Of a stretch of DNA of 32,000 nucleotides, positions 1,970 to 5,879 are shown in pieces. The stretch is taken from positions 150,001-182,000 of the forward strand of contig JAFGBS010000002.1 of NCBI GenBank assembly GCA_016933055.1. Reading direction: 5' to 3'. The DNA is from Promethearchaeota archaeon. GTDB lineage: Archaea > Asgardarchaeota > Lokiarchaeia > Sigyniarchaeales > Promethearchaeaceae. The notes beneath the pieces were generated by a model. It had not been told where the DNA came from and searched no databases. It was given only the letters and a program-made list of their open reading frames with translations. The first letter of the stretch is position 1, and the number at the start of each line of letters is the position of its first letter. A program made the translations under genes and the position numbers.

Positions 1970-2281
1970 TTATTTGAACCGATTTTTATCTCGTACTTGA
2001 TATTTCCTGAGGGATTGTTCAACAGCATTAGATATGGAAATGTTGTAGTAATTTGCAATGCAAATTATACTAAATAGTAAATCTCCCAACTCTTGCTCTA
2101 ATTTATTCAGAGGTTCCTCAGGTTTTTTCGTTTTAATATTCGATAAGTGGGATAATTCTCGCGAAACCTCCCCGAGTTCTTCCATAACGGCTGCGAGCAT
2201 TCCTAAAGGGGTCCAATATCCCCCAGTCTCTTGAATCCAAGAGTTCACTATTTTTTGTAGTTCATTAATACTGTCGTCCAT
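1970..2281 (-). CDS. mazG: Single-domain MazG-like nucleotide pyrophosphohydrolase
   Basis: EELGEVSRE ... EQELGDLLFSIICIAN (ExxE...ExxD metal site), KYQVRDKNRF tail. Confidence 0.85.
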   Translation of the reverse strand: MDDSINELQKIVNSWIQETGGYWTPLGMLAAVMEELGEVSRELSHLSNIKTKKPEEPLNKLEQELGDLLFSIICIANYYNISISNAVEQSLRKYQVRDKNRFK

Positions 2282-2304: not shown

Positions 2305-4392
2305 TTATAATACTATACGCTTTCGGTCTTCAAATTCTTGTTGTTTTCCTTTATTCCATAATTCAAGAGGAGTATAATAATCGGTGATTTTTGAAATGCG
2401 TTTTAAATTATGCTGTTCTGAATCAGCAGGTAGCATTTTCTTGAAGTACCCACATTTTGGGCAAGAATAGAAATCATAATTGAAGGTGAAAGAATTTAAA
2501 TTCTGATTCAATAGACTAATTGTCTGATTTTTCAATAGATCCAAATTTTCATTTTTTGGTGAATTATCTAACCATATAGGTAAAGTACTATTATTCTGAA
2601 TAACCCTTGCACTCTGAGAATGGATTTGACTCTTTTGTTGTAAAGAAATATCCAACGAGTAATTTGCATGAGAGGAGGGCGTATAATATACTGCTTCCGT
2701 TTCTACATTCCCATTAACGATGGATTTAGCATTTATAGGAAAGTGGGTAAGATCTAAATAAGCAAATCGATAGCTTACAAATTCCGCTGGTTCTTCCCAG
2801 ACAGTAAAGAACTTGTTTTGAGTCCTACTATAATATTTCGCACGATCAACTAAAAATTTCAAGATTTTCAAGCCTAATTCCAAAGAACTCTTATCTTCAT
2901 GAAGATGGGAATTTGTATGAAAATACACCATCTCGTCTAATCCAATAAATCCGAACAACAATGCTTGGCGATTGAGATCTAACAATGGTTGATTATTCAC
3001 TAATTCATTACACAAGGGTAATCTGCCTTTCTGTAGGAGAGTACGGATAATTTTATACTTTAATTGTAATATGTCACGCGAAAGATCCATTTGTTGTTCT
3101 AGAATTTCGAAAATTTTAGTTTCATCTCCATTTGCCTTATAAGCAATTCTGGGAAGATTAATTGAAATACTCTGTAATGCTCCTACATTTACGTAAGATT
3201 GATGCCAATCGAACAGATTCGGGTTTTGTTCGTTCATTAAATAAGAAGATTTATGCTCATTCGAAAAAATCGAGCCAAGATATCCTTCCCGTAGCCAAGG
3301 ATTTAGACTATTTATAAAAATGGGGGTTCCCATGTTAGCGGCTTCGGTAAATAAATTAAGCGAAATATCAGGATTTTGAAGATCTTTAGGAGATAACAGT
3401 ACTTTATGTTTGGGAAATGCAAATAACCGATTTCTTGCATCGCCTTGAGTGTACACTTTAGATAAAGCATTGAAAAACAACCGATTCTCCTCCTCATAAT
3501 CCAAATAAGTCCCATGAATAATTCCTCCAGGACCGATAGCATCCACATCTTTCAGAAAATCAGGGATATGGGGACTACAGATGATGGACGATATTGGTAC
3601 ATAGGATCCTCGAGAAAAATATTGTTGATTTAATTCGAAGAGGAAAGTTTGAGCTAATTGTGCGATTTCTGATTGGGATAATTTACTCAAATAAGGAGAA
3701 AGAAAAGTGTTGAAGTAAAGATAATTTTGTTCTCCAGAAAATTCCGAATTCACAAAAGCTAACCATTTACACGCATGTAAGACTGCGACTGTGGCGTTTC
3801 TGGCGGGATTAGACATAGTAAAGGTTAAATACCCTGCTGGGGGAATTCCATGTTTTAAGATCATCCGTAAATCCCAAGATTGGGAAAAAGGTCTCATGTC
3901 AAAATACCGTAACGAATGAATATGAATATCTCCTGATAAATGACTCCTAGCTTGATCAGTTGAAAGCAATTTCAACAAAGCATATTCAGATGCAAGCTGA
4001 CCTGCTGCCCATCGATGAATATTCTCAGGTGCACTATACTCGACAGAACGTGGATTATAATTCGTGTGGAGAAGAACTTCATAATCCGCTATAGGCATCC
4101 CAATACGGGTATATTTTTTTCGAGCTTCTTCGAAATTCAATTCACTGAGAACAGAACACACTAATTCTCGGATATGAGGACCAGATAAAAATCGAATCCC
4201 AGAGGCAATTATCCTCCTTACTACCAGTTCAGTTACTTTTTTTGCATCTTCTGCAGGGAGTTCAGCTTCTTTGATAATAGAAGCCAGTATGTTTTTAGGA
4301 TTAAACTTTTGAACATCCCCAGTACTCATAAATACTTCAGGGAGGAGTTTGTGGATATATTCGGAATTTTCCTTGTGTTCGCGATCTGACAT
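2305..4392 (-). CDS. nrdD: Class III (anaerobic) ribonucleotide reductase-like protein with ATP-cone; catalytic residues appear lost
   Basis: N-terminal ATP-cone-like segment, then YTRIGMP, HLSGDIHIH, FNTFLSPY, AQTFLFELNQ, GPGG...GTYLDYEEE, GDA...FAFP, SINLPRIA, PAE...YRFA, CPKCG, WNKGKQQEFEDR. ATG at 4392 preferred; the frame is open to a TTG at 4533. Confidence 0.85.
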   Translation of the reverse strand: MSDREHKENSEYIHKLLPEVFMSTGDVQKFNPKNILASIIKEAELPAEDAKKVTELVVRRIIASGIRFLSGPHIRELVCSVLSELNFEEARKKYTRIGMPIADYEVLLHTNYNPRSVEYSAPENIHRWAAGQLASEYALLKLLSTDQARSHLSGDIHIHSLRYFDMRPFSQSWDLRMILKHGIPPAGYLTFTMSNPARNATVAVLHACKWLAFVNSEFSGEQNYLYFNTFLSPYLSKLSQSEIAQLAQTFLFELNQQYFSRGSYVPISSIICSPHIPDFLKDVDAIGPGGIIHGTYLDYEEENRLFFNALSKVYTQGDARNRLFAFPKHKVLLSPKDLQNPDISLNLFTEAANMGTPIFINSLNPWLREGYLGSIFSNEHKSSYLMNEQNPNLFDWHQSYVNVGALQSISINLPRIAYKANGDETKIFEILEQQMDLSRDILQLKYKIIRTLLQKGRLPLCNELVNNQPLLDLNRQALLFGFIGLDEMVYFHTNSHLHEDKSSLELGLKILKFLVDRAKYYSRTQNKFFTVWEEPAEFVSYRFAYLDLTHFPINAKSIVNGNVETEAVYYTPSSHANYSLDISLQQKSQIHSQSARVIQNNSTLPIWLDNSPKNENLDLLKNQTISLLNQNLNSFTFNYDFYSCPKCGYFKKMLPADSEQHNLKRISKITDYYTPLELWNKGKQQEFEDRKRIVL

Positions 4393-4547
4393 TTTAGTAG
4401 AGAACTCTTTGTTTGTTTTACATGAAAATAGAAATATGTCGGTGATTGTGGAGGATAATTGATTATCCAATCCTTCACCATCAGCAAAGCTACTTACCGA
4501 CACAAGATTAAAAATCTTATGTGAGATAATCAATATCGGATTAATAT

Positions 4548-5879
4548 CTAAACAGTGTCTAGAATTTTTTTCACAGAATTAACCACGGAGGAAATCATAA
4601 TTTCTGTTTGAGTTTCATCCCGCATGTTTCTTAAAGTGACTTGTTTTGATTCTAATTCTCGCTTTCCCAAAATAAGACAAATAGGGACTCCTAAAGAACT
4701 AGCTAATCCAAGGGAGTCCCGAATGTTACGATCCCAAGAGAAATCGCATTTTATATTTGCATTTCTCAACAGACTCATAAGAGGAATCATTTTCTCTACC
4801 GCTATTTTTACCGGGATAAGTAAAACATCGATAGAGGATTCATTTTGTTTAATTTTCGGATATTTTTCAGGATTTTGTAAAATCTCCGTTAATATTACAT
4901 CCACTCCTACGGAAATACCTACGGCGGGATAATCTTTACCTCTATCGATAAATTTACCGATAATTTTATCATACCGCCCTCCTGCAGCAATTGAACTGGT
5001 AATAGTGGAATTTTTAAAAAAAACTTCAAAAATCGGCCCCGTATAAATTTCCAAACCGCGAGCAAGATCGGGTCTAAATTTTACCTTTTTAGCGATTTTC
5101 ATGTCCTTACAAAAGGATAAAATCGTTCTTACTTCTGTAATCCCTTCGAGTGCAAGAGGATGGATTAAATTTTCTTCAAAAAATTGAATTTTTTTTTGAT
5201 TCGTACCTTTAACGTTTATTTTTTTGAAGATTTCCTCACAAGTAGTAACGCCAATACCTTTATTCCCCAATTCGTCTTGAACTCCCTTAATTCCTATTTT
5301 TTTTAATTTATCAATCGATAAGACGATTTGAGATGCCAGTTCCTCTGAAGTGATTCCAAGTTCTCTAAGTATCCCAAATAAAAGCTTTCTGCTATTTAAT
5401 TCAATATAGATGTCAAATCCTAATTTATCTGCCGCACCGGCTGCAATTGCAAGGCATTCCGCATCATAAATCAAGGAATTGGAACCTATGACATCCGCAT
5501 CTAACTGAAAAAATTCCCGATATCGACCAGCTTTTGTGGGACCGTCTCGAAATACTTTGCCAAATTCATAGCGTTTGAAAGGTAAAATAAGTTGGGGGTT
5601 CATTCCTACATATCGACTCAAGGGGACCGTTAGATCGTATCGTAATGCAAGATTTCGTTTCCCATTGTCTTGAAACGTATACATCTCCTTTAGAATTTCC
5701 GATCCTCCTGCATATTTGGATGCAAGAATTTCCTGAAATTCTATTATTGGAGTTTCTATAGGGTTGTATCCGAATTTCTCAAATTCTTCTGTAAATGCGC
5801 GTACTATAAAATTTTGGATCAATTTTTCTTTTACGTTAAGATCCCTTGTTCCTTTCAGATTACGAAGATCTTGAGACAT
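4548..5879 (-). CDS. hisS: Histidyl-tRNA synthetase
   Basis: KGTRD, LRYDLTVP, GRYREFFQLDADVIG, LARGLEIYTGPIFE, AGGRYD, C-terminal anticodon-binding domain. Confidence 0.97.
   Translation of the reverse strand: MSQDLRNLKGTRDLNVKEKLIQNFIVRAFTEEFEKFGYNPIETPIIEFQEILASKYAGGSEILKEMYTFQDNGKRNLALRYDLTVPLSRYVGMNPQLILPFKRYEFGKVFRDGPTKAGRYREFFQLDADVIGSNSLIYDAECLAIAAGAADKLGFDIYIELNSRKLLFGILRELGITSEELASQIVLSIDKLKKIGIKGVQDELGNKGIGVTTCEEIFKKINVKGTNQKKIQFFEENLIHPLALEGITEVRTILSFCKDMKIAKKVKFRPDLARGLEIYTGPIFEVFFKNSTITSSIAAGGRYDKIIGKFIDRGKDYPAVGISVGVDVILTEILQNPEKYPKIKQNESSIDVLLIPVKIAVEKMIPLMSLLRNANIKCDFSWDRNIRDSLGLASSLGVPICLILGKRELESKQVTLRNMRDETQTEIMISSVVNSVKKILDTV

Follow-up and report, generated by a model that had tools for sequence, protein, structure and literature searches.

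A class III ribonucleotide reductase homologue that has lost its catalytic residues is retained in a lineage of Lokiarchaeia

Background

Why should an archaeon keep a full-length gene for the class III ribonucleotide reductase (RNR) NrdD when the residues of the radical reaction are missing from its product? The question is raised by a minus-strand coding sequence (P0001) at positions 2305..4392 of a 32,000-nt stretch of DNA, referred to here as the window, which corresponds to positions 150,001 to 182,000 of contig JAFGBS010000002.1 of a Promethearchaeota archaeon (GenBank assembly GCA_016933055.1). The first-pass annotation of the window had described an intact 695-aa NrdD homologue that was devoid of radical chemistry and had proposed that it was retained for a non-catalytic role. 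Here, we report that this protein, denoted as the dead NrdD, belongs to a clade of 16 orthologues that share its losses and that are under strong purifying selection. The explanation that we favour, with some reserve, is that the original nrdD of this Lokiarchaeial lineage was converted in place to a non-catalytic pseudoenzyme, probably ligand-sensing or regulatory.

Results

Family assignment and predicted fold

The frame extends from the ATG at 4392 to the stop codon at 2305-2307, and its translation is free of stops over 695 codons. The position of the start Met is common to the orthologues in the homologue alignment. The Pfam model NRDD (PF13597) matches residues 121-691 with an E-value of 5e-94 (316 bits), which together with the translation bears out the first-pass description of a full-length class III RNR homologue. 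The NCBIfam equivalog model for NrdD (TIGR02487) gives 321.4 bits, slightly below its cut-off of 326.35. An AlphaFold2 model for which 47 homologues were used as input has a pLDDT of 91.2 and a pTM of 0.90. Its top Foldseek matches are all NrdD structures, from Prevotella copri, Streptococcus thermophilus, Thermotoga maritima and phage T4, with target-normalised TM values of 0.72-0.75. The dead NrdD is confidently predicted to fold as an NrdD barrel with an N-terminal cone-like domain and a C-terminal tail.

Loss of catalytic and structural residues

The nearest family is the thioredoxin-type class III RNR of T. maritima (SCCR finger; NrdD2 / NrdDh), which is carried by sister Lokiarchaeia. 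The two are alike in the order of their domains (cone-like N-domain, ten-stranded barrel, Zn region, C-terminal loop and tail), in fold (TM of 0.68-0.75 to solved NrdDs) and in chromosomal locus. However, the dead NrdD fails eight of the nine defining features of the T. maritima type that were tested. It has neither the radical Gly nor the lower active-site Cys, the Cys-Cys of the finger and the NxN flap are missing, both GGQ motifs and the Gly-Gly loop are lost, and half of the Zn ligands remain; a search of the genome also gave no NrdG. The closing of the flap over the substrate and the roles of Cys171, Cys416 and Gly711 in NrdD have been described previously (PMC11226230), as have the roles of Cys125, the SCCR motif and loop 2 in the T. 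maritima enzyme (PMC4493059). All positions below refer to the minus strand of the window.

The former glycyl-radical loop (residues 664-679; 2356..2403) reads K-I-T-D-Y-Y, in which Asp671, encoded by GAT at 2380-2382, aligns by HMMER to the radical Gly of P. copri NrdD. At this position of the R-[VI]-x-G-[YF] loop the 16 members of the clade have Asp, Asn or Lys throughout, with Asp or Asn in 15 of them. The lower active-site Cys position lies in RPFSQS (residues 167-172; 3877..3894), where active Asgard NrdDs have RPFCQE. Ser170 of this motif aligns to the Cys of the first barrel strand, that is to Cys125 of T. maritima and Cys171 of P. copri, and is Ser, Ala or Gly across the clade. In the finger-loop region (residues 361-380; 3253..3312) the SQCCR of active relatives is replaced by a Cys-free segment with an insertion of 6-7 residues, and the insertion carries the clade-specific motif Y-L-G-x-F-F-S-N. 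The thiyl-radical Cys of the SCCR motif is therewith missing: residues 355-404 contain no Cys in the query and in most of the clade, while two members have one stray, non-homologous Cys each.

The remaining losses concern the surroundings of the active site. Comparison with active relatives gives SGEQ for SGGQ in strand beta-B (residues 219-222; 3727..3738), RGSY for RGGQ (residues 261-264; 3601..3612) and N600-N601 for the invariant Gly-Gly loop (2590..2595). E221 of the first of these aligns to Ala173 of T. maritima NrdD, which reaches the substrate ribose via a water molecule (PMC4493059). From the alignment and the same study, RGSY probably opens loop 2 (T. maritima 217-228). Both Asn of the former NxN substrate flap (residues 111-124; 4021..4062) are replaced, as N115R and N117V. 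The four-Cys Zn site is reduced to C644-x-x-C647 (2452..2463), the second CxxC being absent; other members of the clade retain four, two or zero of the Cys residues.

The first-pass annotation had already read Asp at the glycyl-radical position, RPFSQS at the upstream Cys position, a finger region without Cys and a single CxxC at the Zn site, and in all of this it agrees with the alignments. Of the three further losses that it listed, SGEQ and RGSY stand. HIHS does not, as the nearest active enzymes read HxHM. The flap substitutions and the change of Gly-Gly 600-601 to Asn-Asn add to its list. All active Asgard relatives have the catalytic residues, whereas none of the 16 clade members does; judged by these residues, the dead NrdD cannot act as a glycyl-radical reductase.

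The dead clade and selection

Beyond the query, a homology search retrieved 15 distinct proteins that share its losses and are 49-76% identical to it. The sources of the resulting 16 proteins are Lokiarchaeota/Promethearchaeota metagenome bins. Their pairwise identity ranges from 47 to 91% and their length from 688 to 714 aa, and the frames are all intact. In a maximum-likelihood tree they form one clade (SH-aLRT 100) with a stem of 0.5 changes/site, situated within the active Asgard NrdDs. Contigs of two other studies of hot-spring metagenomes match the gene with zero differences, and one of them covers 2305-2482, which upholds the GAT codon at 2380-2382 from independent material. Chance and sequencing error are excluded, because the losses are common to all 16 members and the independent contig is identical.

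The ratio of nonsynonymous to synonymous substitution rates (dN/dS) is quoted for the closest pairs only, as distant pairs are synonymously saturated and hence unusable. For the closest pair of dead NrdDs, dS is about 1.0 and dN/dS is 0.04-0.05, and other close pairs reach at most about 0.06. Same-genome controls give 0.04-0.075 for the adjacent histidyl-tRNA synthetase (HisRS) and 0.08-0.125 for MazG. When the same pairs of genomes are compared, the identity of the dead NrdDs is equal to or higher than that of HisRS (76 versus 76%, 87 versus 81% and 59 versus 52%). In the alignment 166 positions are conserved in both the active and the dead groups, and another 51 have become fixed anew within the dead clade. 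The protein is homologous to an enzyme family whose catalytic residues it has lost, and purifying selection after that loss is indicated by dN/dS values of 0.04-0.06, by 16 diverged frames that remain intact and by a rate equal to that of HisRS. These sequence comparisons support the view that the dead NrdD is a pseudoenzyme under strong purifying selection and not a decaying gene. They agree with the retention that had been proposed for it, and they extend the loss of Gly and Cys from one gene to a group of Asgard orthologues.

Position of the gene in the dead clade and its sister family

In the dead clade the order of genes is PAN, cupin, TGT-C2/PUA, NAC, a small open reading frame (ORF), HisRS, dead nrdD, MazG and FGGY kinase. 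In three genomes of the sister family, active nrdD has the same neighbourhood, namely PAN-PUA-NAC-ORF-cupin-nrdD-MazG-FGGY. Therefore, the shared neighbourhood from PAN to MazG and FGGY makes the dead gene the ancestral nrdD converted in place and not a spare paralogue. The dead gene is the positional orthologue of the working nrdD in sister lineages.

Ribonucleotide reductases of the genome and its relatives

The genome amounts to 3.76 Mb in 36 contigs and is 91% complete. An intact NrdD was found neither in it (G000) nor in the other two reference genomes with the dead form (G011 and G018), and its sole other NRDD match is very weak and lies inside a 759-aa winged-helix protein. NrdG was likewise not found in the 91%-complete genome. 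No hit of the family models exceeds 39 bits, where the cut-off is 131, and three Lokiarchaeial NrdGs used as tblastn queries returned only generic radical-SAM similarity. The search for a second nrdD and for nrdG that the first-pass annotation had proposed has accordingly turned up neither.

A negative search with Pfam PF02867 would have suggested that the genome has no other RNR at all. This was rejected as a false negative, since tblastn with a relative's protein and the model TIGR02505 recovered a full adenosylcobalamin-dependent ribonucleoside-triphosphate reductase (RTPR) of class II on contig 17 (L037:4961-7342, minus strand; 438 bits against a cut-off of 340). It matches the Lactobacillus RTPR 1L1L with an E-value of 1e-121 and has the NPCGE thiyl motif. 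Each of the 14 reference genomes of the family encodes RTPR, and so do 54 of the 61 genomes sampled across the order. On this gene content, the organism relies on the B12-dependent class II RTPR for deoxynucleoside triphosphates. The enzyme is of the monomeric type and has a cone-like N-terminal segment of its own; in several relatives its frame is 1050-1670 aa long with a split match, which suggests inteins.

Genomes of the sister family usually have RTPR, active NrdD and NrdG together. Within the family, active NrdD is seen in one genus, the dead form, with no active copy found, in two genera, and no nrdD in four genera, including three closed genomes. The ORF in the corresponding slot upstream of MazG in the genera without NrdD was considered as a relic of nrdD and rejected. 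It encodes a Ras-family GTPase of 521-629 aa with a C-terminal Zn ribbon (L063:2740-4302, L064:2968-4836, and on the minus strand L065:2111-3928 and L066:2511-4397), and in L066 a GHMP-kinase gene lies between it and MazG.

Four PFL-like glycyl-radical enzymes are encoded elsewhere in the genome (C15:183077-185377, C11:21652-24869, C5:48417-51155 and C17:331420-334487). Three of the four have an adjacent activase-like radical-SAM gene; the organism has not abandoned glycyl-radical chemistry.

The N-terminal domain and the shift of constraint

The best-conserved part of the dead clade is the cone-like domain at residues 16-100 (4093..4347, minus strand). In the AlphaFold2 model it consists of a beta-hairpin and four helices, which fits the cone topology. 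The Pfam ATP-cone model (PF03477) scores 17.6 bits on it against a cut-off of 25.8. The ATP-cone of the first-pass annotation is, in this sense, a cone-like N-terminal domain and not a recognised ATP-cone. The residues R59, R60, R91, K92 and R96 are retained.

We then compared the variability of segments by alignment entropy, for which the mean over the protein in the dead clade is 1.13. The minima are found at residues 51-100 of the cone-like domain (0.16-0.37) and at the first barrel segment, residues 151-175 (0.35). Parts of the old pocket give 1.54 (finger), 1.06 (loop 2) and 1.34 (Gly-Gly loop), and the Zn region, which is eroding further in some members, gives 1.75. In active relatives the most conserved segments are the finger loop, loop 2, the GGQ strands and the Gly-Gly loop. 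By this measure, the strongest constraint no longer lies in the catalytic pocket but in the cone-like N-terminal domain and the first barrel segments. This in turn points to a non-catalytic derivative whose function rests on the N-terminal domain and the adjoining scaffold. A set of polar residues in the former pocket is nevertheless invariant and specific to the clade: R115, E118, N124, S160, S216, N228, N600 and N601.

Comparison with other inactive or cone-bearing proteins

The betaherpesvirus R1 homologues M45 / UL45, the closest published parallel known to us, are catalytically inactive RNR large subunits that are under selection and have been reused for another purpose. Like them, the dead NrdD is an RNR large subunit that has lost its catalytic residues and is kept by selection. 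However, M45 / UL45 are viral, derive from class Ia and act on host cell-death signalling, whereas the dead NrdD derives from class III and belongs to a cellular genome. NrdR, a bacterial repressor of RNR genes with a Zn ribbon and an ATP-cone, is a precedent for a cone sensor outside a working reductase. It differs in having a canonical nucleotide-binding cone and a DNA-binding Zn ribbon, where the dead NrdD has a non-canonical cone and no DNA-binding module. No published description of inactive class III RNR homologues was found in our literature search.

Two further groups of NrdD derivatives were seen in the same or sister genomes. The 759-aa protein mentioned above (P0121; contig 27, L002:22-2301, plus strand; NRDD 21.5 bits) combines a winged helix-turn-helix (wHTH), a cone-like domain and a diverged NrdD-like body. 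It resembles the dead NrdD in its origin from NrdD, its lack of radical residues and its presence in the same genome. It has gained a DNA-binding winged helix and its body is far more diverged, whereas the dead NrdD is a recent derivative formed in place and has no DNA-binding domain. Homologues of P0121 with 710-804 aa occur in most of the family genomes searched, and its first 230 residues are 36-39% identical to many metagenome representatives of 756-769 aa.

The other group consists of truncated NrdD paralogues of about 605 aa in the sister family (L038:1592-3406, L039:1442-3256, and on the minus strand L040:2245-4083 and L041:1616-3460; also P0128 and P0134). They are likewise dead Lokiarchaeial derivatives of NrdD that have kept the cone-like domain and lost both Cys positions. 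Unlike the dead NrdD, they coexist with active NrdD in many sister-family genomes and have no Zn and Gly domain at all. They arose independently, because they form a separate clade beside the active NrdDs of that family. The radical Gly, the Cys residues or both are missing from more NrdD-like representatives in the 50%-identity library (P0136, P0156, P0200, P0241, P0262 and others). Judged from these sequences, dead NrdDs appear to have arisen many times. As for active Asgard NrdDs, they often carry intein or LAGLIDADG insertions (PF14528, PF14890), as in P0025, P0097 and many representatives of 1100-1700 aa.

Neighbouring genes and upstream region

A MazG-type nucleotide pyrophosphohydrolase (1970..2281, minus strand; Pfam MazG, E-value 2e-14) lies 23 nt downstream of the dead nrdD and retains the EExGE and ExxD motifs for metal binding. 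Its substrates may be the dUTP or dCTP that triphosphate reductases produce. In relatives, MazG adjoins nrdD whether nrdD is active or dead. The upstream neighbour, assigned by Pfam, is the HisRS gene (4548..5879, minus strand) that was used above as rate control.

The intergenic region of 155 nt between HisRS and the dead nrdD (4393..4547, minus strand) has 81% mean column identity across four genomes whose synonymous sites are saturated, and it is probably a promoter or regulatory region. Two blocks in it are invariant, AATCACCGAC (4438-4447) and AACAAACAAAGA (4406-4417), and could possibly belong to a promoter or leader; neither block shows genome-wide enrichment. A shared operator for the dead nrdD, RTPR and the wHTH gene was also considered and rejected. 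The word CCGACAWA and the upstream blocks are unenriched in the window and the genome, and no regulon is claimed.

Discussion

The reading that we favour would proceed as follows. An ancestor would have had two RNRs, namely an RTPR of class II, dependent on B12, and a thioredoxin-type NrdD of class III together with the activase NrdG. RTPR would have taken over in the family of this genome, and nrdD would have been deleted in most genera. One lineage would have kept nrdD and lost the radical Gly, both active-site Cys positions, the flap, the glycine-rich loops, part of the Zn ribbon and NrdG. Strong purifying selection would then have acted on the retained protein during the whole of a deep radiation, and its present job would be non-catalytic and would rest mainly on the cone-like N-terminal domain and the first barrel segments. 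Most probably it binds a small ligand, for which a nucleotide is the obvious candidate, or a protein partner in deoxynucleotide homeostasis. We hold the nucleotide-sensor version of it only loosely.

Several observations weigh against this explanation. The dead NrdD has Met and Asn in place of R22 and K34 of active Asgard NrdDs, two basic residues that correspond to triphosphate-binding positions of characterised ATP-cones (the Lys7/Arg8 region and the first helix; PMC11226230). Nucleotide binding by the dead NrdD is doubtful because these two residues are replaced and the cone scores below the Pfam cut-off. The invariant polar residues of the former pocket could mark a new binding or catalytic site. 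Words of the gene are nearly nil in two metatranscriptome runs of the source study. The role is dispensable in close relatives, whose genera deleted the gene. Finally, G000 is 91% and G011 and G018 are 76-80% complete, and the absence of nrdD and nrdG is to be read as not found.

Among more specific or different explanations, the one that fares best is a stand-alone allosteric sensor, in which the cone-like domain and the dimer scaffold, kept once the protein's own catalysis was redundant, would read the nucleotide pool and signal to RTPR, MazG or the wHTH-NrdD-like regulator; we regard this version as unlikely in itself. Two others are slightly less probable still and rank about equally. In the first, the dead NrdD is a new enzyme whose pocket was rebuilt for a non-radical reaction or a new substrate, with the Asp/Asn and the finger motif in the new active site. 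The pocket does have its own invariant polar residues, the finger has a conserved Y-L-G-x-F-F-S-N insertion, and 15 of 16 members have Asp or Asn at the old Gly position. However, the finger, Gly-Gly loop, loop 2 and Zn region are put at or above the average variability of the protein, which resembles relaxation and not a precise new site, and the alternation of Asp, Asn and Lys at the old Gly counts against a fixed catalytic role. No motif for a new cofactor was seen.

In the second, an old structural contact is still needed, and the dead NrdD serves as a scaffold of a deoxynucleotide-synthesis assembly with MazG, RTPR or the wHTH-NrdD-like regulator as candidate partners. The adjacency of nrdD and MazG is older than the loss of catalysis and persists after it with a gap of 23 nt on the same strand, and both RTPR and the wHTH-cone-NrdD-like protein are encoded in the same genome. 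Adjacency is nevertheless weak as evidence by itself. Three members of the dead clade (P0012, P0014 and P0007) have other genes in the downstream place of MazG, and MazG and RTPR are kept in genera without the dead nrdD. A complex prediction for the dead NrdD and the downstream MazG scored 0.00 (an outcome of 'no answer') and weighs neither way on binding.

It is far less probable that the dead NrdD acts on the class III system, be it as the regulatory partner in a heterodimer with active NrdD or by serving NrdG as a decoy, both of which the first-pass annotation had suggested. NrdDs are dimeric with the specificity site at the dimer interface (PMC4493059), and the barrel, the loop-2 region and the C-terminal tail are retained. 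However, no active NrdD was found in G000, G011 or G018 and no NrdG by family models or tblastn, so these ideas have nothing to act on; moreover, the gene is the orthologue of nrdD and not a paralogue beside a working copy. A functionless, decaying pseudogene or an assembly error is the least credible reading, for although sister genera have wholly lost the gene and the Zn site is eroding in some members, there are 16 intact orthologues down to 47% identity, a dN/dS of about 0.05 that equals that of HisRS, a conserved upstream region, a confident fold and an identical contig from an independent metagenome.

Conclusions

The identity of the dead NrdD, the converted nrdD of a Lokiarchaeial lineage, is well supported. 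Its orthology with nrdD in place, the reliance of the organism on a class II RTPR and the existence of other dead NrdD lineages nearby had not been foreseen in the first-pass annotation. Members of the clade are publicly annotated as 'anaerobic ribonucleoside-triphosphate reductase', and metabolic reconstructions consequently credit these Asgard archaea with an enzyme that they do not possess. One order shows at one locus the working enzyme, the dead but selected protein and the deletion, and provides a natural experiment on the origin of a pseudoenzyme. Given that this genome and those of sister lineages contain two other dead NrdD families and that metagenomes add further non-catalytic NrdD-like representatives, the class III RNR scaffold has seemingly been reused repeatedly, perhaps as a nucleotide sensor. 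If the sensor reading is true, a retired reductase would have given rise to a trans-acting regulatory subunit for deoxynucleotide supply, and it would be one of several such cases that arose independently in Asgard archaea.

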